Assembly: GCA_965277805.1 (NCBI GenBank)
Contig: OZ255842.1
Span: 3,488,001 to 3,552,000, forward strand
DNA: 64,000 bases
Source of the DNA: Candidatus Lustribacter sp.
GTDB taxonomy: Bacteria; Vulcanimicrobiota; Vulcanimicrobiia; Vulcanimicrobiales; Vulcanimicrobiaceae
Direction: 5' to 3'
Part shown: in pieces, positions 5,029-35,553 of the stretch
Layout of the letters: each line of letters starts with the position of its first letter
Numbering within the stretch: position 1 is the stretch's first letter
Notes under the pieces: model-generated
Database searches by the model: none
Seen by the model: the letters and a program-made list of their open reading frames with translations, nothing else
What the model was told of the DNA's origin: nothing
Position numbers and translations under genes: made by a program

Positions 5029-5418
5029 TCACTTTTTCCGGATCATTTCTTCAGCTTCGGCCAATAGCGCAGCAACGTCGACGTCCACATTGTGCACGAA
5101 GCCGCGGATGTTCGGCTCGCGCTTTTCTCGCCCGTTCACGACGCGAACGCGAATCGCGTTGCCCCAAATGGTGTAGCGCGTCGCGGCTGGTGCATTACGG
5201 CCGTGAAGCCAGGCGCGCACGCGGTCCGTTAGCTCCGCGGCCGTTTTGCCCGGCACGCGAATCGGCGCGGTTACGGTAAAAAGCAGCGTCATACCATCCG
5301 GGACGTCATCGCGCAACGCATTCTGCATAGCGGCAATGAGCCCAAGCGCAACCTTGTCAAAGCGCAGTCCTCGCTTCGAACTCAACTGCGTTTTAGCTGC
5401 CTGTCCGGTTTCTGGCAT
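5029..5418 (-). CDS. hypothetical protein
   Basis: 129-aa ORF co-oriented with neighbours, protein-like composition (LRFDKVAL...TVTAPIRVPGKT). Confidence 0.6.
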   Translation of the reverse strand: MPETGQAAKTQLSSKRGLRFDKVALGLIAAMQNALRDDVPDGMTLLFTVTAPIRVPGKTAAELTDRVRAWLHGRNAPAATRYTIWGNAIRVRVVNGREKREPNIRGFVHNVDVDVAALLAEAEEMIRKK

Positions 5419-5463
5419 CTATCAGCCGTTCCGGGTTGGGACACGTACCGCTTTGCAGGCGAG

Positions 5464-6666
5464 CTAGCGGTTTGCGGTCGGACCCGCCTTCCCGCCGATT
5501 TCGCTTACGGTCGACCACGCGTTCTTCGCAGGATTCCAACGGACGAGGACCACGGACGACAAGCCGACACCGCGTTGGCTGCCGTCGCGGAAATCGAATA
5601 TCCCAACGGTCCCGGCGTAACCATGAAAGGTTTCGAGGTAATCGCGTAAGTCTTTCGCCGTCGCGGTGGTGCCGAGCTTGCGCAGCGCCTCCACGAGAAT
5701 CAATGCCGGGTCCCATGAAAGGCTGTGAGGGGCGTCCGGTTCGATGCCCTTTGCGCGCAACTTCTCGTAAAAGACGCGCTGCGCATCGCGCACGGGCCCT
5801 TTGTTTGAAACATCGTACGTCACAAATCGCGGCGCGGTGAGGTAGAAGTGCTCCGGTACGTATGACGCATATTGGGCGAGCTGCGCGTGCACGAGGTTAC
5901 CAAAATTCGTCATGACGGGGACCTTCTCGAGTCCCGCATCCTTGAGCGCGTGCAGAGCCGTTCCGAGCGGCGTCCCAACGCACGTGATGATGATCGCGTC
6001 GGGATCGGTGCTTTTCAGTCGAGCGGCTTGCGCTGAAAGCGACACGTCGCCGATTCCGAAGTGCTCGCGGCCCACGATGTGAACCGCTCCGTACGTGGCC
6101 ATGCCCGACACGATGTCGATCTGCTGATCCTGATCTTGACCGGCCGCATCCGTAGACGAGAGCACCGCGATCCGCTTCCATCCCAAGGACTGAGCGAAAT
6201 TGAACCAGGCCCGCGTTTGGTCGAGCGTGGACACCGAGGTTGAGAAGGCATAGCTGCCGGCCGGCGGATGAATTGCCGGCGCGAGGCAATACATCAGCGG
6301 TCCGTTGCGAACGAGCGGCAGAATCGACAGGCACGAGGCGATGTAGCTCGGCCCGATGATGATGGGCACGTTCTTCGCGATGATGCCGTTCGCGAGTTGT
6401 ACGGCGGTCGCGGGCTGCGACTGATCGTCGGCAATGACGAATCGAATCGGCTGTCCATGGATGCCGCCCGACTTGTTGACGACGTCCTGAACCGTGAGCA
6501 GCGATGCCTGTTCACCGGCGCCGAGGAGTGCTAACGGCCCCGTAAGCGAGAGGATTGCATTGATCTCGTACGGTTCCGCAGCGTTCGCCCGCGGAGCGGT
6601 CGTGACGAGCAGCGCCGCCATTGCCATGACGGCGAGGCACTTTGCAACCGAATTAGACTTCTGCAC
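5464..6666 (-). CDS. ABC substrate-binding protein (LivJ type)
   Basis: GTG start after GGAGG; AEPYEINAILSLTG, GGIHGQPI...DDQSQP. Confidence 0.85.
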   Translation of the reverse strand: MQKSNSVAKCLAVMAMAALLVTTAPRANAAEPYEINAILSLTGPLALLGAGEQASLLTVQDVVNKSGGIHGQPIRFVIADDQSQPATAVQLANGIIAKNVPIIIGPSYIASCLSILPLVRNGPLMYCLAPAIHPPAGSYAFSTSVSTLDQTRAWFNFAQSLGWKRIAVLSSTDAAGQDQDQQIDIVSGMATYGAVHIVGREHFGIGDVSLSAQAARLKSTDPDAIIITCVGTPLGTALHALKDAGLEKVPVMTNFGNLVHAQLAQYASYVPEHFYLTAPRFVTYDVSNKGPVRDAQRVFYEKLRAKGIEPDAPHSLSWDPALILVEALRKLGTTATAKDLRDYLETFHGYAGTVGIFDFRDGSQRGVGLSSVVLVRWNPAKNAWSTVSEIGGKAGPTANR

Positions 6667-26829: not shown

Positions 26830-28740
26830 TTAAAGCCTGCCGCGTGGCTTCGTCTCGGGACCGGGCACCGGTGCCGCCTGCATCGGGTCTTGCGGCGCCG
26901 GCCTTAATTTGAGCCAGCCGCCAGTCACTGCCACAACGCGTAAAAGCCGCTGACCGAGCCTCGCCTGCGCAGCCGATGCCCAAGGAAACGGCTTCATCGC
27001 CCCCGCCATCGTCTGCTCATATGGTGCGACCGAGGTTGCGTCATGGACCGCGCGCGCGTACTCGTCGAACACGACGAGTGTGGAGCGTAGGCGCGTTACA
27101 CGCTGCTCTTCCCACCTCGTCGTCGGAGCCTGTAACGGAGGCGCGAAGAACTGTTGGATCAATTCATCGCCGGCTTGCGCTCCGTCTTGCATGAGCGTCT
27201 TGATCGTTGTGTCCGCCATGGCAAGATTGAGGCCGCCCTGAGTCGCGTCGAGTTGGATCTCGACGACGCGCTCGCGGTAACCCGATAGCTGCATGAGTAT
27301 ATTGTCATTCCAGTTCTGCATTGCGTCCAGAACCGCGGCCAGGAACGAGGGAAGACGATTGCCTCCCGACTCCGAAACTTCGTTGACGTCAGGGGCATTC
27401 GCGTCGGCCATTGCCACTCGCTTTGCGGAACCAGGTACGACGTTGCGCAAATTGAGAGCAAATGTCGGCCAACGCGGCAGCGGATTGTCGAAGAACTGGA
27501 TCGGTAGGTTGCTCGAAATTCCGCCATCGCTGAACCAACACTTTTGGGGCGGCGTCTGCTGCGGATTAGCAGCTTTGGGAACCGCATAGAGGGGAATTGC
27601 GCTGAAGAGAAGCGGAAACGACAGGCTCATCCGCGCCGCCATGACCACGGGAAAGTCTTCAGGGGGTGGCAGCGGGTCCAACACGACGGCTTGCTTCGTT
27701 TCGGGATCGGTGTAACGTTCTTGCGGAAGCCCCGCGTTCTTCGAAGTAACGAGCAAGTGCTGCACAACTTGCGGCGGAAACAGATCTGCCATCTCACGCT
27801 GATCGAAATAGTACGTGTACAGGTTGAGCGGGCTAAACGGCAATCGATAAGGTCGCCCGATCGTCACATTCGTCGTCACCATTTCGAGGTTGATCGACCG
27901 GCAACCGCGGTTTTGGAGATCGTCCAAGTAATCGTTGCCCGTTGTCGTGCATTCTGACATGACGCCACCCGGCAGCCACGGTGCTTTCGCCCCCCAAAGG
28001 TCACCGAACGTCAGGGGCGCCGGCCCGGGAAGATTTGCGTATGCGTTGATCTTTTGGTAGAGCCACGTCGTCAGCGGAAGCGGCTTTCCGCGCTGTTGCG
28101 AAATACCAGTGCACATCCCGAAGTAATTTTCCGGAACCCTCGTCCGTATTGTACGCCAGAGGCCGAACGAGACACCGAGCGTCGCCGCTAGGCCGGCAAA
28201 GGGCACCGTCAGCAGGAGCGCCCATGAGAATGCCGCGGGCGAGTTAAGGAGGCTTCTCTGAATCGGAAACGCCAGTGCTTCCGTTAGGAGGACCAGACCG
28301 ACCGACCACGGCCAATACGATCGGAAAGCCCGAAGAACGATCGCGGGTATCGGTCGATTCTGGGTTGCAGCGAGTAGCGCGTCAAATAGCGGCTTTGTCG
28401 CCATCGACGGTTGAAATAAATTCAGTAAGCCGTTGTTCTGCGCGAGAAAAATCGGCAGCGCCGCGAGCTGCTTAAACCCGTCGCCACCGGCACGTCGGCT
28501 ATACTCTGCCGCGGCCCCCAACGCAGCGGCGATGGCACCGGCGGACGTCCCGCCGATATTCCGGAACAAATAGCGTTGCGCGAGCCGGCAAATGGCAAGC
28601 GGATACACTACGCCACTCGTGACCCCCCCTTTCATTACGACGTCGCAGAACGGGGTGTCTGGCGAGTTGGGATACGTCGCGTCGATGTACGGCTGCGCGA
28701 TCTGCTCGGGTGACAGTTGCGCCGCGTCTACCAGTTCCAC
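26830..28740 (-). CDS. patatin-like phospholipase with an internal transmembrane hairpin
   Basis: KGGVTSG, GTSAG, DGG catalytic motifs; GTG start at 28740 chosen by overlap and RBS. Confidence 0.85.
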   Translation of the reverse strand: MELVDAAQLSPEQIAQPYIDATYPNSPDTPFCDVVMKGGVTSGVVYPLAICRLAQRYLFRNIGGTSAGAIAAALGAAAEYSRRAGGDGFKQLAALPIFLAQNNGLLNLFQPSMATKPLFDALLAATQNRPIPAIVLRAFRSYWPWSVGLVLLTEALAFPIQRSLLNSPAAFSWALLLTVPFAGLAATLGVSFGLWRTIRTRVPENYFGMCTGISQQRGKPLPLTTWLYQKINAYANLPGPAPLTFGDLWGAKAPWLPGGVMSECTTTGNDYLDDLQNRGCRSINLEMVTTNVTIGRPYRLPFSPLNLYTYYFDQREMADLFPPQVVQHLLVTSKNAGLPQERYTDPETKQAVVLDPLPPPEDFPVVMAARMSLSFPLLFSAIPLYAVPKAANPQQTPPQKCWFSDGGISSNLPIQFFDNPLPRWPTFALNLRNVVPGSAKRVAMADANAPDVNEVSESGGNRLPSFLAAVLDAMQNWNDNILMQLSGYRERVVEIQLDATQGGLNLAMADTTIKTLMQDGAQAGDELIQQFFAPPLQAPTTRWEEQRVTRLRSTLVVFDEYARAVHDATSVAPYEQTMAGAMKPFPWASAAQARLGQRLLRVVAVTGGWLKLRPAPQDPMQAAPVPGPETKPRGRL

Positions 28741-30542
28741 TGGTCCACAACCTCGTTCGACGGCAAGCCGAGTTCCGCGCACAGCCAGAGCGCTGCCTGA
28801 GCCCGCGTCATGCTCGCGCTCGGCCACGGGAGCACCTTTCCGGCGTGATCGTTCACGGCGTCACGTTCGCTCTGCGTTATGGGATCGGAGGGACGGAAGT
28901 GCAGCGAGTTCGGGTCGCTCAGAAAGCCACGCACACCCAGCAGATGCGCTGCTGCAAACGTCTTCGGATCGTCAAACGTAACGTCGTCCCACCAGAAAAT
29001 CGGCGTTCCGTATTCGAGAAGACGCAGCTGCAACGCGGCAAGGCGAGCAGTGTTTCCGTGCGCATCGGCCGGCATAACGCCTTGACCAACACAGTATGCG
29101 GCCAAGGTACCGGCAGCTTCCCCGATGGCCCATTCTCCCGGATGAACGCGATATGCCCCGCTCGTGATGTGCGTGGCTCCGATATTCTTGCACGCTGCGA
29201 TCACATTGGATGCGTCGGTTGGGATAAGGGAGCCCAGGGGAATCTGGAACGGCCTGACGCTGATGCCGCCCACCCACGGTGTTCCGGGCGGCCCGTAACA
29301 TTGATGCACGTCAATGCCGTAATAGCAGATCCCGCATGAATCCGCGAAGTTCATCGGCGCACGGGCAAGTGGAGACTTGCTGTCTTCCACGGAAATGTGC
29401 TGCTCGAGGACGCGGACGATGGGGTGCGCGAGGCGGCGTGACTCGCGGATGTACGCCTGCGGAGCCGTTCCATCTTCGCGACCGAAGATATCGGTCCGCA
29501 CTTTTAGATTCGGGTAGCCCTTCCCCGGGCTTCCATCGTCGTGTGGCGCTTCGGTTTGCAGCCAGTACAGATACGCCAGCGAAGCGCCGCGCGCGGCCTC
29601 GACGATGGCGGCATCGGCGGCATCATCTCCAGTGGGGATGACGGCCGCTTGGTAATCGTTGCAGCCGACATTGATGACGCTCCGGTCGTTCGGGTAGTCC
29701 GCGTCGGCAAAATTTGCGTGATCGAGATACTGACGATAATTGAATATCGTTTCCCACTCCGGATGATCGGAATGTGCCGACGAGAGCACACCGCCGATGT
29801 AGCCGTTGCGATTGTCGTACATCTGAAAGTCCTGTGCCTCGATCAGCTCCGGCGTGTAGGCGCCCGGCTTCGCGATCACATGATTCTCACCGGCCGGACA
29901 GCGTTCGACGGCAATGGACACGGTGATTGGCTGAATGTGGCCCGGATTCGGGGTCGGCTCCGCGTGCGGCTCGTCCGTGTCGCTTTTTGCTTCTGCGCCG
30001 ATGACCCAGCTGATGCCGGCTTTCGGAAGGAGTCGACCGAGGTCGGTCGCATCGACGAAGATTTTGCCGCTCATCGTATCGCCGTTTGACAGTACGAGCG
30101 AGGTTACGTGCCCGTCGTTGACGTTGACCGTCGCCACATCCGTACGAAGCATCACCGTAACGTTCGAAGCCACGTCCTTCAGCAATTGCTCCAACACTGT
30201 TTGGGTGACGTTGCAATCAGCTGAAAACGGATGGCCCGAGCTAGAGAAACCGGGGTTGAACTCCTGGCCGTTGACGCCGGCCGCAAGAACTGCGTTCGAG
30301 CGATACCAGCCCCTAATGTCGTCTTTCAGTAACTGATACGATTTTGAGCTTCCGTACCTGTTCGGCGAACTGATCTCCGCCGTTTCGTCCCAGCGTGTCA
30401 ATCCTTGCGTCGTCGCCTGCCCACCCACGCCTTCGCCGGAATCAACAAGAACAATACTCTTGCCGTAACGCGCACCGGCAAGAGCGGCCGATACGCCGCC
30501 AAAGCTGGCGCCGAGGATCACGATATCGTATTCGCGCGTCAT
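28728..30542 (-). CDS. FAD-dependent oxidoreductase (FAD_oxidored type) with an SLH-like C-terminus
   Basis: YDIVILGASFGGVSAA, DATDLG, YIRESRR, YRVHPGEW; tail FRPSDPIT...MTRAQAA. Confidence 0.8.
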   Translation of the reverse strand: MTREYDIVILGASFGGVSAALAGARYGKSIVLVDSGEGVGGQATTQGLTRWDETAEISSPNRYGSSKSYQLLKDDIRGWYRSNAVLAAGVNGQEFNPGFSSSGHPFSADCNVTQTVLEQLLKDVASNVTVMLRTDVATVNVNDGHVTSLVLSNGDTMSGKIFVDATDLGRLLPKAGISWVIGAEAKSDTDEPHAEPTPNPGHIQPITVSIAVERCPAGENHVIAKPGAYTPELIEAQDFQMYDNRNGYIGGVLSSAHSDHPEWETIFNYRQYLDHANFADADYPNDRSVINVGCNDYQAAVIPTGDDAADAAIVEAARGASLAYLYWLQTEAPHDDGSPGKGYPNLKVRTDIFGREDGTAPQAYIRESRRLAHPIVRVLEQHISVEDSKSPLARAPMNFADSCGICYYGIDVHQCYGPPGTPWVGGISVRPFQIPLGSLIPTDASNVIAACKNIGATHITSGAYRVHPGEWAIGEAAGTLAAYCVGQGVMPADAHGNTARLAALQLRLLEYGTPIFWWDDVTFDDPKTFAAAHLLGVRGFLSDPNSLHFRPSDPITQSERDAVNDHAGKVLPWPSASMTRAQAALWLCAELGLPSNEVVDQWNW

Positions 30543-31522
30543 CGTGGTGGCTGATCGGTGCGTTTGGGCTTGCGCCCGGCCGCCCGGACGTTGGCAAGCG
30601 AAGAAAGGGCCTCGAACCAGAACGGGCCGCCAAGCCATACGGCTAGCCACGTCAAGGCGAGTCCGGGCCAGCGCAGGGAACCACTGCTCCAAGCCCAGTT
30701 ATTCCAAAAATCCGGACGTGGGCTCGCGAATTGCGTCATGTCGAAAGGCGAGGCTCCGAGGTTGACGCTCAATCCGGCTGATGTGGCCAACTTGGCCAAC
30801 GAGTCCGGATCCGTTGCGGAGAGCACTTTGACGACCGCGATGCTATCCACGCCGGAAACAGACACGAGCAGCAGAGCGATGAAGAACAGAATGGTTTTCG
30901 TCCGACGTTTATACCACCCCGACACGCGGTCCATTTGGGCGCTGAACCAGGAATCCGTCGTGCGCAGAAGCTTTTCGTAATCGTCCCCGCCGGCTGTTAT
31001 GAGTGCAAGCAAACTCTTTTGTACTGGGCTCGGATGCATGTCGGCGACCGTACTCTTCAACGCGGTTATCGCCGCAGTCGGATTAGCGATTGCAACGAGC
31101 TGCGCGAGCTCACTCGATTGCTGTGCTGCTGCGTCGGGGGTATTCGGGCCGCTGGGCGCCTTGGCCGCAGTATAGACCACTTGCCAGAATGCAAGTGAAA
31201 AGTTCCGCGCGTCCAAGTATGACGGCGGACCGCTGCCGACAACGTTCAGGAAGCGCCGGAAGCCGTTGACGTCGGGAGTTTCAGCGACTTTTAGCTGTGG
31301 CTTCGGCGAGGTATTGAGAACGAGTGGGTGATTAAAGATTTTGGCCGCGATATCGTCGCCGCCGGCAAGCGCGGAGACGCCGCGAAACAAATCCCATCCG
31401 CGCAACGCCAATCGGGACGCGATCCATTCGTGAATCCACGAAGAAACGCAAGCCAACGACGCATATATTGCGAATAACACGATCGCAATGTCGAGTACCT
31501 GGTTCAAAGATAGCGCGCCCAC
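30539..31522 (-). CDS. hypothetical multi-pass membrane protein
   Basis: LDIAIVLFAIY N-terminal TM, WF...MDRVSGWYKR, GGPFWFEAL. Confidence 0.75.
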   Translation of the reverse strand: MGALSLNQVLDIAIVLFAIYASLACVSSWIHEWIASRLALRGWDLFRGVSALAGGDDIAAKIFNHPLVLNTSPKPQLKVAETPDVNGFRRFLNVVGSGPPSYLDARNFSLAFWQVVYTAAKAPSGPNTPDAAAQQSSELAQLVAIANPTAAITALKSTVADMHPSPVQKSLLALITAGGDDYEKLLRTTDSWFSAQMDRVSGWYKRRTKTILFFIALLLVSVSGVDSIAVVKVLSATDPDSLAKLATSAGLSVNLGASPFDMTQFASPRPDFWNNWAWSSGSLRWPGLALTWLAVWLGGPFWFEALSSLANVRAAGRKPKRTDQPPR

Positions 31523-31747
31523 CGCACACCCCCAGCCAGGGTTGATCTGAGCTACCGCGGCCCCTTATCTGACGCCATTTGCTTTCCTGCAAAGCTGGGG
31601 CAACCAAGCGTTGCTTCAGGAGATCCGGTCCCGACGGTATCGTAACCCCAACGCTGACCGCGCTAGGCTTAGGGTCCGAAGAGGGCGGAACCCCGTCACG
31701 GTGGTACCTACCGGATGACGTTTCTCATTCCGTCCCGGAGGAAATCC

Positions 31748-32392
31748 ATGCGCATTGCATCTCCGTCGGCTCTTGGTACGCTTTCCGAGAACAACACGGT
31801 GACTCTCGACAATACGTGCGTGAGCCTGTCCGGCGACGATGCCCGCGTTTGGGCGTTGTGCGACGGCCAGCGCTCGCTAGAGGAGCTTCGCCTAGCCCTC
31901 GCCCTCGACGCGGAGGCGATCTTTGCTGCGCTCGACCGCCTTGCAGACCTCGGCCTGGTTAACCGCCGCGTGACGCCCCCCGCCGGCTCCTCCTCGATGT
32001 CGCGGGCTACAGCGATCGCGGCGGCTGCGGTGCTGGTGACGTCCGGTGCCGTATCGCGTCTGGCCCCGCATGACGAGATCGCCGGCCGCGGACAAGAGCA
32101 GGGGCACAAGAAGGCACCACTGCGACCCGAGATCGCCGACCGCGGACAAGAGCAGCACCACAAGAACGCACCACTGCGACCCGAGATCGCCGACCGCGGA
32201 CAAGAGCAGCACCACAAGAACGCACCACTGCGACCCGAGATCGCCGACCGCGGACAAGAGCAGCACCACAAGAACGCACCACTGCGACCCGAGATCGCCG
32301 ACCGCGGACAAGAGCAGCACCACAAGAACGCACCACTGCGACCCGAGATCGCCGACCGCGGACAAGAGCAGCACCACAAGAACCGCGCCTAG
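31748..32392 (+). CDS. candidate RiPP precursor: PqqD/RRE-like domain, hydrophobic linker and six tandem 18-aa cores
   Basis: GGAGG RBS at 31737; ARVWALCDGQRSLEEL...ALDRLADLGLV wHTH; repeats EIADRGQEQHHKNAPLRP. Confidence 0.75.
   Translation: MRIASPSALGTLSENNTVTLDNTCVSLSGDDARVWALCDGQRSLEELRLALALDAEAIFAALDRLADLGLVNRRVTPPAGSSSMSRATAIAAAAVLVTSGAVSRLAPHDEIAGRGQEQGHKKAPLRPEIADRGQEQHHKNAPLRPEIADRGQEQHHKNAPLRPEIADRGQEQHHKNAPLRPEIADRGQEQHHKNAPLRPEIADRGQEQHHKNRA
32075..32383 (+). repeat. 54-bp tandem repeat, about 5.7 copies (starts 32075, 32129, 32183, 32237, 32291, 32345)
   Basis: Unit gagatcgccgaccgcggacaagagcagcaccacaagaacgcaccactgcgaccc; copies 2-5 identical, first variant, last truncated. Confidence 0.97.
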
Positions 32393-32405
32393 CGCCGCCT
32401 CTGCC

Positions 32406-33869
32406 CTGGACGTTCTCTCGGATAAGCCGCGCGTCTATCGTGCGGCGAAGTTTTGTTCGCCGCACGAATGTGCGCGGCTCATCGCCGTGGCGGCCAAGTA
32501 TGTGCGCGAAGCCCCCGATCGGCGCGAGGATGAGACCGGCGAGTCGTGCGAGTTGCCGCTCGATGTCGATCCGCTCGTCGCAGAGATCTTCGCGCGTGTC
32601 GAGCGCGTGCTCGGCATCGCGAATGCGTGCGGCGGCACGCTGCGCTACCGCCGCTACGAGCCGGGTACGTCGCACCCCGCTCACCTGGATGCGTACGAGA
32701 TCAACGGCGCGCATCTCCTCGTTACGGCGATGCTGAACCTGACCGACACCGAGGACGGCGGCGAAACGGTCTTCCCCGACGCGGTCAAAGGCGCCCTTGC
32801 GCTCCCCGCGCGCGCCGGCGAGCTCCTACTGTGGTTCACTCACCGTCCCGACGGTTCGCTTGACCCGACCTCGAAGCACGCCGCCCTCGCGGTGCGCCGC
32901 GGAGAGAAGCTGACGCTGACGCAGTTTGTGTACGGGCCGCTCGCTGCAGCCGCGCTCGCCTACGATCCCCACCGCCAGCGCTTCGTCCTGCCGCCTTCCG
33001 CCTCCGGATGGTTCTGCTGCATTGACGACGGTTGTCCCGAAGCGTCAATTGAAACGCTGCGAGCCGCGTGCGCTGCGCGCGACGTCCCCTTCAAGGTCAT
33101 CGAAGCGTCGCAGTTCGATTGGGATCCCGCCCGGCGTCTCGCGCCCGGCGATATGCTCTTCCGCCCGGCCATCTCGATTGCCGCGGAGCGCGTGGAACGC
33201 TTCCTCCACGCCCCCGGCGTCTCCACATTCTACGACGATGGGCCCGACACGGTTTTCTTCACCCCGAACACGACGCCGCTCTTACTCGAGCGCGCTGGTC
33301 TGCCCGTCCCACGCACCGTGTACTGCTCGTCTGGCGACCGCGCACTGTTGCGCGCGTACGTCTCGCATCTCGGCGGCTTCCCAGTGGTCGTGAAATTCGA
33401 AGGCGGTTCGGGCGGCGTCGGCGTTCTGCGTGCTGACTCAGAGCCGGCGCTCTTCTCGCTGATCGACTTCGCGCTCGCGCTCGGCCGCCATCCGTTGCTC
33501 GCGGCGTACATACCGGACGCGGAACACTGGCGCGTCGTCGTCGTCGGCGACCGGCCGATCGCCGCATATCGCAACCCGCCAGACCCCGGCGACTTTCGGA
33601 CGTCAGGCACACAGCGTGCCGATGAGGTAACCGCAACGCCGCGTGAGCCGCTGGCGACGCTCGGGGTACGAGCCGTCCGCGCCGTGCGCAGCGCATTCGG
33701 CGGCGTCGACATTCTCCTGCACCCGAGCGGTCGCGCCTACGTGCTCGAGGTGAACGTTCCGTGTTACTTTCCGCACGCGCAGCTCGTTGGGGGCGTGGAC
33801 GTCGCTGGAGCGATGGTGGCGTACCTCGTCGAGCGCGCGAGCCAGTTGCGGATTATGTCACCACCGTAG
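32406..33869 (+). CDS. 2OG-Fe(II) oxygenase (prolyl 4-hydroxylase-like) fused to a RimK-type ATP-grasp ligase; start uncertain
   Basis: LSDKPRVY...HLD...GGETVFP...HAALAV..GEK; then LPVPRT, PVVVK..GGSGGVGV, FGGVDIL, LEVN. Confidence 0.85.
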   Translation: MDVLSDKPRVYRAAKFCSPHECARLIAVAAKYVREAPDRREDETGESCELPLDVDPLVAEIFARVERVLGIANACGGTLRYRRYEPGTSHPAHLDAYEINGAHLLVTAMLNLTDTEDGGETVFPDAVKGALALPARAGELLLWFTHRPDGSLDPTSKHAALAVRRGEKLTLTQFVYGPLAAAALAYDPHRQRFVLPPSASGWFCCIDDGCPEASIETLRAACAARDVPFKVIEASQFDWDPARRLAPGDMLFRPAISIAAERVERFLHAPGVSTFYDDGPDTVFFTPNTTPLLLERAGLPVPRTVYCSSGDRALLRAYVSHLGGFPVVVKFEGGSGGVGVLRADSEPALFSLIDFALALGRHPLLAAYIPDAEHWRVVVVGDRPIAAYRNPPDPGDFRTSGTQRADEVTATPREPLATLGVRAVRAVRSAFGGVDILLHPSGRAYVLEVNVPCYFPHAQLVGGVDVAGAMVAYLVERASQLRIMSPP

Positions 33870-33900
33870 TGATGTTATCGTATCAAATTGTGAGACGGTC

Positions 33901-34002
33901 TTACCATTCCACTTCGAGCGGCTTCGAATAAGCGTGATGCGCTTGAATCTTTTCGGAACCGCCGTGTTCGCACCAGGTCATAAAGAACTTTATATCGACC
34001 AT
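33901..34002 (-). pseudogene. 33-codon degenerate copy of the C-terminal part of the adjacent HNH-like gene
   Basis: MVDIKFFMTWCEHGGSEKIQAHHAYSKPLEVEW* versus CAVCGAEKVQAHHDDYTKPLEVTWLC. Confidence 0.7.
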
Positions 34003-34048: not shown

Positions 34049-34582
34049 TTACGAGGATGATTCGCAGCGAAACCTGTCTGCCAAAGGCAGTTCTTCGCTG
34101 GCTGTACGGTGGGCTAGGCCATGATGAATGGAGCATAACCATGTAACTTCGAGCGGTTTAGTATAGTCGTCGTGGTGCGCTTGGACCTTTTCGGCGCCAC
34201 AAACTGCACAAGGTGAACGCTGAATATGACCGCCCTTGAGCCCATACATGACCGCGAAATGCGCGGCAGCTTTTAGGGGATTACGCGCTCGCCAATCATC
34301 AATGCTCTTTCGCACGTGCTGAGCATTTCGCGAATACCAAGTTCGTCGATATGCCGCAACGTGATCCAAATTTTCTTGTCGCCATGCTTCAGTCTTCGCT
34401 CGTAAGCGATCGCTGTTCTTTGCATAGAATTCGTAGTAAGATTGTTTCGAGCAAACGATACAATGGCTCCGTCGACCGTCACTCGAAGACGGATTTGTAT
34501 AGAACTGCTCAGGCTGCTTAAGTTCGCCGCAACGATTGCACGTTTTGGCTGCACCCGGACTGAGTCGTCGCGGCGCTCCCAT
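34049..34582 (-). CDS. phage-type zinc-finger/HNH-like protein
   Basis: CNRC, CIVC and CAVC pairs, AHHDDYTKPLEVTWLCSIHH; visibly lower GC. Confidence 0.7.
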   Translation of the reverse strand: MGAPRRLSPGAAKTCNRCGELKQPEQFYTNPSSSDGRRSHCIVCSKQSYYEFYAKNSDRLRAKTEAWRQENLDHVAAYRRTWYSRNAQHVRKSIDDWRARNPLKAAAHFAVMYGLKGGHIQRSPCAVCGAEKVQAHHDDYTKPLEVTWLCSIHHGLAHRTASEELPLADRFRCESSS

Positions 34583-35256: not shown

Positions 35257-35553
35257 CTACTTTTCCAATTTAATGAACAGGGCGCGCATCACGTCTTCGT
35301 TGAGACGCATCTGGCGTTCGAGCTCTTTCGAAGCGACGGCTTCGCTCTTGAACTTCATCACGACGTAGTAGCCTTCGCGAACATCGTCGATCTCATAGGC
35401 CAGGCGGCGCTTGCCCAGCTTCTCGATCTCGCCGACAACTTCACCGCCCTGGCCCTTGATGGACTCGGCGATGGCCTCGACGCGGGCGTCCATGTCGGTC
35501 TCTTCGAGCGCGGGACGCAGAATATAGGTGACTTCGTAGTCGATTGCGGGCAC
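35257..35553 (-). CDS. rpsF: 30S ribosomal protein S6
   Basis: YEVTYILRP, GKRRLAYEI, EGYY, L..DVMR. Confidence 0.97.
   Translation of the reverse strand: MPAIDYEVTYILRPALEETDMDARVEAIAESIKGQGGEVVGEIEKLGKRRLAYEIDDVREGYYVVMKFKSEAVASKELERQMRLNEDVMRALFIKLEK

Follow-up and report, generated by a model that had tools for sequence, protein, structure and literature searches.

A candidate graspetide-like module in Candidatus Lustribacter: a repeat protein with a PqqD-like domain beside an oxygenase/ATP-grasp fusion enzyme

The genome of Candidatus Lustribacter sp. (assembly GCA_965277805.1) contains, on the forward strand of contig OZ255842.1, two neighboring genes of a large family, so far undescribed, whose peptide and protein products are probably cross-linked and secreted. 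Both lie within positions 3,488,001 to 3,552,000 of the contig, the 64,000-nucleotide stretch analysed here (the window; coordinates below are those of the window). The first open reading frame (ORF), ORF1, encodes a protein ending in a tandem array of 18-residue units, and the second encodes an enzyme in which a 2-oxoglutarate (2OG)/Fe(II) oxygenase domain is fused to an ATP-grasp ligase domain. An original prediction, made from the sequence of the locus, proposed that the two form a system for a peptide synthesized ribosomally and modified after its translation (RiPP). Comparative evidence supports that proposal: the ligase and an ORF1-like partner recur side by side across phyla, and a short glutamate/lysine motif is conserved in the partner tails. 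The more specific reading, that ORF1 and the enzyme constitute a graspetide-like module modifying a ribosomal peptide or protein, is given a little better than an even chance.

Organization of the gene pair

The features of the gene pair are as follows, all on the plus strand.

31737..31741, Shine-Dalgarno-like GGAGG, six bases 5' of the ORF1 ATG (sequence reading)
31748..32392, ORF1, predicted substrate or precursor, 214 residues; homologues adjoin the ligase in 36 of 81 loci
31778..31987, PqqD-like N-domain of the RiPP recognition element (RRE) type with its V-T-P-P-A-G linker, residues ~11-80 (AlphaFold2, alignment and profile)
31997..32056, residues 84-103, hydrophobic and rich in Ala; homologues have a Tat-like signal here (SRRxxL, hydrophobic stretch, AxA)
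32074..32383, 54-bp tandem repeat, 5.7 copies encoding six 18-residue units, the predicted modification sites
32406..33869, fusion enzyme; start uncertain, placed at CTG 32406, in a frame open from GTG 32046
32415..32933, prolyl-4-hydroxylase (P4H)-type 2OG-Fe(II) oxygenase domain (PF13640; Pfam and P4H matches in the PDB)
33012..33854, RimK/LysX-like ATP-grasp ligase domain (Pfam, NCBIfam, PDB and Foldseek)
33929..33945, terminator-like hairpin 3' of the enzyme stop; weak, with 5 such sites against 2.6 expected in shuffled sequence

ORF1, its repeats and the fusion enzyme were all found as originally described. The ORF1 frame is open from 31715, starts at ATG 31748 and stops at TAG 32390-32392. 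Its array is the single one reported by Tandem Repeats Finder (period 54, 98% matches, score 585). Each 18-residue unit contains E-Q-(G/H)-H-K, giving six occurrences of E-[EQ]-x-x-K, together with Gly and Pro, and the protein ends in K-N-R-A. Four public runs hold the locus, as contigs of one sample, and none with RNA was listed. Contigs of the same organism from these runs end at the array, where the depth of the repeat unitigs is about 5.6 times that of the flanks (54.8 against 8.7 and 10.8 in run X1), in agreement with the copy number of the repeat. The close relative P0121, 87% identical to ORF1, carries three units instead of six, each with E-Q-G-Q-K or E-Q-G-H-K; between the two proteins E, Q and K are kept, and the two middle residues and the copy number vary.

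A ligase and its partner recur at homologous loci

A large protein collection yielded 119 relatives of the enzyme, comprising fused forms of about 490 residues and stand-alone ligases of about 285 residues. Homologues were found in a Hydrogenedens metagenome-assembled genome (MAG), in Polyangium, in Viridibacterium and in varied metagenomes. The locus set used for comparison comprised 81 loci, namely 80 metagenome loci and the one from the Hydrogenedens MAG. When all ORFs of these loci were clustered against one another, only two recurring clusters remained apart from shadow ORFs: the ligase and the ORF1-like partner. A hidden Markov model of the ORF1-type N-domain matches 36 of the 81 loci. 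Where at least 900 bp were available on both flanks of the ligase (37 loci), an N-domain partner is present in 23, so that the enzyme homologues do have neighboring ORFs with repeated E-x-x-x-K motifs, as the original prediction would have it. The other 14 well-flanked loci include four with short peptides bearing double-glycine leaders and three with ORFs rich in E..K pairs; six further loci carry E..K-rich ORFs that are cut off by contig ends. The scanned loci share no conserved third gene, whether for a protease, a transporter or a chaperone, and the neighbors are unrelated housekeeping genes.

The fusion to a 2OG domain is present in Candidatus Lustribacter as described, and across the family the domain is optional. 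It occurs in 28 of the 81 loci, fused to the ligase in 18 and encoded by a separate adjoining ORF in 10, scattered over the ligase tree. It is absent from 23 of the 36 partner-bearing loci, and the core unit is therefore taken to be the ligase and its substrate, with the oxygenase as an accessory. The order of the two domains also varies: a Viridibacterium curvum protein (P0012) begins with the ATP-grasp domain and ends with the 2OG domain, and the same swapped order is suggested for about ten more relatives by their length and their query coverage of 57-58%. At two loci (L043, 708-2027; L044, 460-1760) two tandem paralogous partner genes stand beside one ligase, and a single ligase may thus serve several substrates. 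In the Hydrogenedens locus (L008) the gene directly 5' of the fusion enzyme (5172-5897) codes for a DUF6901 protein (Pfam E 7.3e-62); DUF6901 does not recur in the other homologous loci.

A conserved E-x-x-x-K motif in the partner tails

All partners consist of an N-domain of about 75 residues, a linker with the consensus A-P-P-A-G in which P-P is invariant, and a tail variable in both length and sequence. The one feature common to these otherwise unalignable tails is E-[E/Q]-x-x-K, and the Glu/Lys pair at positions i and i+4 singled out in the original prediction is thus the element conserved among otherwise unrelated partners. Motif statistics were obtained for 35 non-identical partner tails and repeated on 150 independent representatives of the family. 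Counted from each Lys in the 35 tails, position -4 is Glu with a frequency of 58% (4.4 times background) and position -3 is Gln with one of 35% (2.8 times). The remaining positions hardly differ from background, and only 20% have Glu at +4. The 150 representatives gave closely similar values, with Glu at -4 in 60% (4.8 times background) and Gln at -3 in 30%. Four or more copies of E[QE]..K occur in 36 of the 4,175 ORFs of all loci, and every one of these 36 flanks the ligase gene. In the most reduced partners, L047 and P0231, the motif occurs once, in a tail some 14 residues long.

The motif also occurs outside the N-domain partners. In one clade of ligases, precursor peptides without a PqqD-like N-domain are encoded immediately 5' of the ligase, with a leader ending in the double glycine of V-S-G-G. 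Their cores comprise 10-20 residues with one or two copies of E-[E/Q]-x-x-K, such as TEERQKLSFNEESFKTPQ in L038. Loci of this kind are L038 (1665-1808), L066, L059, L046, L042, L055, L033, L078/L081 and L071/L085, and some ligases of the clade (L055, L059) carry a fused 2OG domain.

The catalytic domains of the fusion enzyme

The HxD...H...K oxygenase and the RimK-type ATP-grasp domain were recognized by Pfam as PF13640 (2OG-FeII_Oxy_3; E 4.7e-7, 31.1 bits against a cut-off of 27, residues 87-182) and PF08443 (RimK; E 1.2e-14, 54.8 bits against a cut-off of 21, residues 299-480), as had been read from the sequence. The nearest PDB sequences to the 2OG domain are the P4H entries 2jig, 3itq and 5hv0, at about 1e-9. 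The domain carries H95-x-D97 and H160, and ten residues after H160 stands a conserved Lys. In an alignment of 29 enzyme sequences H92, D97 and H160 of the 2OG part and K332, D437, E450 and N452 of the ATP-grasp part are invariant, and H95 is present in at least 90%; both domains look catalytically intact. The AlphaFold2 model of the whole enzyme has a mean predicted local distance difference test (pLDDT) score of 92.9.

By sequence and by fold the ligase is nearest to enzymes that activate protein-bound carboxylates, namely RimK, LysX/ArgX and PsnB. Among PDB sequences RimK (5zct) matches at 3.3e-18, with LysX near it and PsnB weaker (6.5e-6). In Foldseek comparisons, the template modelling (TM) scores normalised to the target are 0.79 for RimK, 0.80-0.82 for ArgX/LysX and 0.68-0.70 for PsnB, the last also a significant match.

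The start of the enzyme is unusual. A start at GTG 32487 would remove a conserved N-terminus, encoded from about 32400, that includes an invariant Pro. The sole near-cognate codon there is CTG 32406, which lies 14 nt 3' of the ORF1 stop. Contigs from three runs span 32354-34000 with zero differences, which makes an assembly indel at the enzyme start unlikely; within that interval an assembly error is out. A fusion of ORF1 and the enzyme by frameshift was likewise rejected, given the prevailing arrangement of partner and ligase genes on opposite strands described below. The gene call of the closest relative (P0001) also begins at the internal GTG, and the missing canonical start may be conserved. 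Translational coupling or non-canonical initiation may account for it.

The N-domain and the signal-like segment

The N-terminus of ORF1 had been described as a PqqD/RRE-like winged helix, and comparison of the family members points the same way. The AlphaFold2 model of the ORF1 N-domain (pLDDT 86-98 over residues 11-70) contains two clear strands followed by four helices, and D63, P77 and P78 (ORF1 numbering) are invariant in the partner alignment. A profile of 29 N-domains has as its top three PDB matches PqqD (5sxy, 1e-3), PqqD (3g2b, 1.3e-3) and TbiB1 (1.8e-3), which is a lasso-peptide RRE. No Pfam family is matched by more of the members than PqqD (PF05402), with 15 of 29 and a best E of 1.6e-7. 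For the ORF1 copy by itself Foldseek returned only generic winged-helix matches (best E 0.084, none significant), ToxR and CadC among them and TbiB1 at rank 36. Of 24 partner members looked up at NCBI, one is named 'PqqD family peptide modification chaperone', five are 'hypothetical protein' and 18 are unnamed. A word-based protein search returned three proteins with the N-region of ORF1 and, run with an alignment at longer lengths, none. An exhaustive search with the N-domain profile found 2,046 clusters at 50% identity with E<=1e-10 and 7,639 with E<=1e-3; some of the weaker matches may be PqqD proteins of a generic kind or signal peptides.

The 'Ala-rich hydrophobic segment' of the original prediction is present, and in ORF1 resembles a signal peptide or a membrane segment, which is the more fitting description; in homologues the corresponding region is read as an export signal. 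Most partners have S-R-R-x-x-L, then a hydrophobic stretch rich in Ala and Gly, and a small-x-small site, the features of a twin-arginine translocation (Tat) signal. Two arginines followed by two hydrophobic residues occur within 45 residues of P-P in 117 of the 150 independent representatives. The Pfam TAT_signal model matches two of 29 partners, and a profile of the signal region matches NapA and MelC weakly, in their Tat signal peptides. The Candidatus Lustribacter genome encodes TatC. At least five partners (L023, L024, L034, L035 and L060) end in sequences like PEP-CTERM sorting signals, which indicates that those tails end up outside the cell. These ends (also listed for L060/L061) read, for example, V-P-E-P-S, a hydrophobic stretch and basic residues, and they tie the predicted ligase substrates to exosortase-type surface anchoring. 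A prediction of the complex between the enzyme and ORF1 residues 1-125 scored 0.62 against 0.65 for a control with an unrelated chain 1 and is uninformative.

A proposed modification pathway

From the comparisons above we strongly infer that ORF1 is a substrate of the enzyme. Its PqqD-like N-domain and signal-like segment would together act as the leader, with the six 18-residue units as cores. In the cytoplasm the RimK-like ATP-grasp domain would activate the Glu gamma-carboxyl of each E-Q-x-x-K as an acyl phosphate, and attack by the epsilon-amine of the Lys at i+4 would close a single macrolactam, Glu(i)-Lys(i+4), in each unit. The fused PF13640 2OG/Fe(II) domain would then hydroxylate the ring, after lactam formation. 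We infer the lactam chemistry, the site of hydroxylation, the order of steps and export from sequence and from analogy with characterized enzymes. Tails from 2OG-bearing loci show no conservation of Pro, Asp, Asn or His, the residues that had been put forward for hydroxylation, which makes these poor candidates. Pro and His were specifically rejected as conserved targets: the repeats of such 2OG-bearing loci as L036 and L060 lack them. By analogy with corallotide (see below) the hydroxylated residue would be the cross-linked Lys. The modified tail would be exported by way of its internal signal and probably cleaved from the N-domain, which might serve as a docking site for the enzyme or, acting in cis, keep hold of the signal peptide until modification is done. 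An export signal built into the substrate would also explain why neither a transporter nor a protease gene adjoins the pair.

More tentatively, and with a probability well short of even, the family may represent a large class of exported ribosomal products that is so far undescribed. Members would share a leader made of a cis RRE-type domain and a Tat signal; every E-x-x-x-K would be stapled as an i,i+4 lactam; ring hydroxylation before Tat export would be optional; and in some lineages the product would be anchored by exosortase. The N-domain in such a class would act as a gate, holding the signal back or recruiting the enzyme until modification is complete.

Several observations weigh against a graspetide-like module. 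Seven of the 37 well-flanked loci, two of them with outgroup ligases, have no candidate substrate beside the ligase. Co-transcription is not general, since 35 of 38 partner ORFs are on the strand opposite to the ligase, and the same-direction layout of ORF1 and its enzyme is the minority arrangement. The enzyme frame contains no ATG, GTG or TTG from 32046 (inside the repeats) to 32487. ORF1 itself has no match to Pfam PqqD at E 0.1. Tat export of ORF1 is doubtful, since its twin arginine is degenerate: it reads S-R-A-T, with a single Arg, and the segment may instead be a Sec signal or a membrane anchor. The E(i)-K(i+4) enrichment could be partly structural, reflecting the salt bridges of charged single alpha-helices; taken together, the motif data argue against a purely salt-bridge reading of the pattern. 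Finally, the enzyme scores 27.3 bits (E 1.9e-6) against the graspetide-synthetase model TIGR04187 and does not reach its cut-off of 350, and the best NCBIfam models for the ligase are those of the RimK and LysX amino-acid ligases, themselves below cut-off.

These model scores make the addition of a free amino acid a live alternative, if an unlikely one. The ATP-grasp domain would in that case ligate a free amino acid or amine, such as glutamate, onto the motif Glu or onto the C-terminus; the Lys would serve in recognition only, and the 2OG domain would act elsewhere. LysX and ArgX activate the Glu gamma-carboxyl on a carrier protein. The best model (rimK_fam, TIGR00768; E 7.8e-23) and the best PDB match, RimK 5zct, both point in this direction, as does a fold closest to RimK, ArgX and LysX. 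The curated cut-offs are not reached, however, with rimK_fam at 81.2 bits against 143.4 and the RimK equivalog at 62.3 bits against 331, and the partner C-termini are unconserved and have no terminal Glu. Moreover, the Lys at the fixed +4 position is as conserved as the Glu, which intermolecular ligation does not require. The characterized PF13640-associated analogue makes an intramolecular i,i+4 lactam (PMC13097080).

A second alternative retains the Glu-Lys bond and places it between molecules or distant repeats, so that the tails would be polymerised into cross-linked extracellular material. Many partners are long, exported and rich in motifs, and the PEP-CTERM-like anchors noted above would suit such a material; core fragments of corallotide are reported to aggregate and are compared with collagen (PMC13097080). 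This is nevertheless rather improbable: the strict -4 spacing suggests a local ring, some peptides have one motif only or a short core behind a double-glycine leader, and a cytoplasmic ligase would leave cross-linked polymers that are hard to export.

Genomic setting

The gene pair lies in a region of the genome that varies within the genus. The enzyme is absent from the seven same-genus genomes searched, and among the genomes of 33 other relatives five have weak partial matches to the ligase part (E 1.2e-7 to 7.3e-4). Synteny with three same-genus genomes, the closest of which is 94% identical at rpsF-ssb, breaks off precisely where ssb ends (window 34693), and the interval 26.7-34.69 kb has no DNA match in the three. 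The synteny break and the missing DNA matches place the module in a genome-specific variable region and make its closeness to rpsF incidental. The GC content over ORF1 and the enzyme is 65-68%, against about 60% beside them. Other features of the region are listed here.

26830-28827, patatin-like phospholipase
28728-30692, FAD oxidoreductase (PF12831)
30539-31522, membrane protein without family
34049-34582, minus strand, Cys/His-rich ORF of 177 residues containing CxxC and HH motifs, located between the module and ssb

The 177-residue ORF has no Pfam match above threshold (best E 0.013). From its motifs it looks like a zinc-ribbon or HNH-type protein, and it may be a mobile-element remnant.

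The setting also bears on the least probable alternative, in which ORF1 is not the substrate. It would be either a PqqD-type chaperone anchored in the membrane or a winged-helix regulator of the ToxR kind with a charged helical tail, and the enzyme would act elsewhere, for example on ribosomal protein S6. The ToxR and CadC folds among the Foldseek matches (best 0.084, none significant), the chaperone name carried by one member and the presence of rpsF, which encodes S6, 1.4 kb away (35257-35553) would fit this. Against it, the module sits in the variable region just described, the neighbors change among the loci scanned without a recurring third gene, S6 here ends in K-L-E-K and not in Glu, and short double-glycine-leader peptides, which lack the N-domain, carry the motif as well.

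Implications and comparison with known systems

Should the proposed chemistry be correct, cross-linking by ATP-grasp ligases would extend beyond small peptides of secondary metabolism to a widespread hardening of secreted proteins, and a finding so far tied to a single genus, that of corallotide, would be extended to many phyla. RiPP genome mining currently looks for RREs on enzymes; a recognition-element fold carried by the substrate and coupled to Tat export would represent a new leader logic for such searches. The predicted E-x-x-x-K lactams would be the natural enzymatic version of a synthetic helix staple. A genetically encodable enzyme for i,i+4 Glu-Lys lactams, with a five-residue tag and an optional hydroxyl handle, would be useful for peptide stapling.

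Full-text literature searches, together with passages of Makarova et al. (2022; PMC8939145) and of an RRE survey (PMC12710340), yielded no match to this family and no graspetide with an E-x-x-x-K motif. They likewise yielded no fusion of ATP-grasp and 2OG domains of this kind; the supplementary lists of PMC13097080, which could name such ligases, lie outside that scope. In the same sources, PMC12710340 included, no precursor with a cis PqqD-like domain or a Tat signal was found.

Several known systems resemble the module in part. The top PDB profile matches, the Pfam matches of 15 of 29 members and the order of strands and helices in the model suggest a likeness of the N-domain to PqqD (PF05402) and to the RRE TbiB1. 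Known RREs are found on enzymes or as stand-alone proteins and bind the leader in trans, whereas the domain described here is on the presumed substrate, 5' of a signal. RimK, the S6 glutamate ligase, and LysX/ArgX with LysW are the best matches of the ligase in sequence and structure, and all activate a protein carboxylate. The differences lie in scores below the cut-offs, in a partner without a conserved C-terminal Glu, and in the oxygenase fusion and the internal E..K motif, which are unlike either system. Classical graspetides such as microviridin and plesiocin, the latter with its synthetase PsnB, likewise have an ATP-grasp enzyme beside a precursor in which acceptor and donor are at fixed spacing; typical double-glycine leaders are found in one clade of the present family, and PsnB is a significant fold match. 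They differ in that the rings predicted here are amides only, with no conserved Ser/Thr, in that the ligase is closer to RimK/LysX than to PsnB, and in that most precursors here are exported proteins with a cis PqqD-like domain and not short peptides. A subclade of graspetide synthetases, MyxF, is reported to act on (KxxE)n (PMC12848669).

The original prediction had found no characterized counterpart for this architecture, a statement that no longer stands. The closest characterized system is corallotide, of graspetide group 15, from Corallococcus (Carter et al., ACS Chem Biol 2026; PMC13097080). The 22-kDa precursor CorA has a helical N-domain followed by five K-x-x-x-D repeats, in which the ATP-grasp enzyme CorB forms a Lys-Asp i,i+4 isopeptide (lactam). 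CorC, a PF13640 oxygenase, hydroxylates the Lys C-delta after lactam formation; CorB requires CorC, and the two co-purify. By description, the ORF1 system is similar in having a protein-sized precursor with a folded N-domain and then repeated cores, an ATP-grasp enzyme with an i,i+4 side-chain isopeptide (reported there, predicted here), and a PF13640 oxygenase partnered with the ligase, physically bound in corallotide and fused in the enzyme described here. The two differ in motif, K-x-x-x-D there and E-[E/Q]-x-x-K, with Glu first, here. The present ligase is RimK-like and fails TIGR04187, its oxygenase is fused and, over the 81 loci, optional, and its N-domain is PqqD-like and followed by a Tat-like signal. 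Corallotide also involves CorD, of the beta-lactamase fold, whereas the six window proteins scanned include no PF00144 member. The corallotide group is reported from Corallococcus only, and the present family is found in many lineages. The ORF1/enzyme family thus resembles corallotide in its logic and differs from it in motif, ligase type, fusion, leader and taxonomic breadth.

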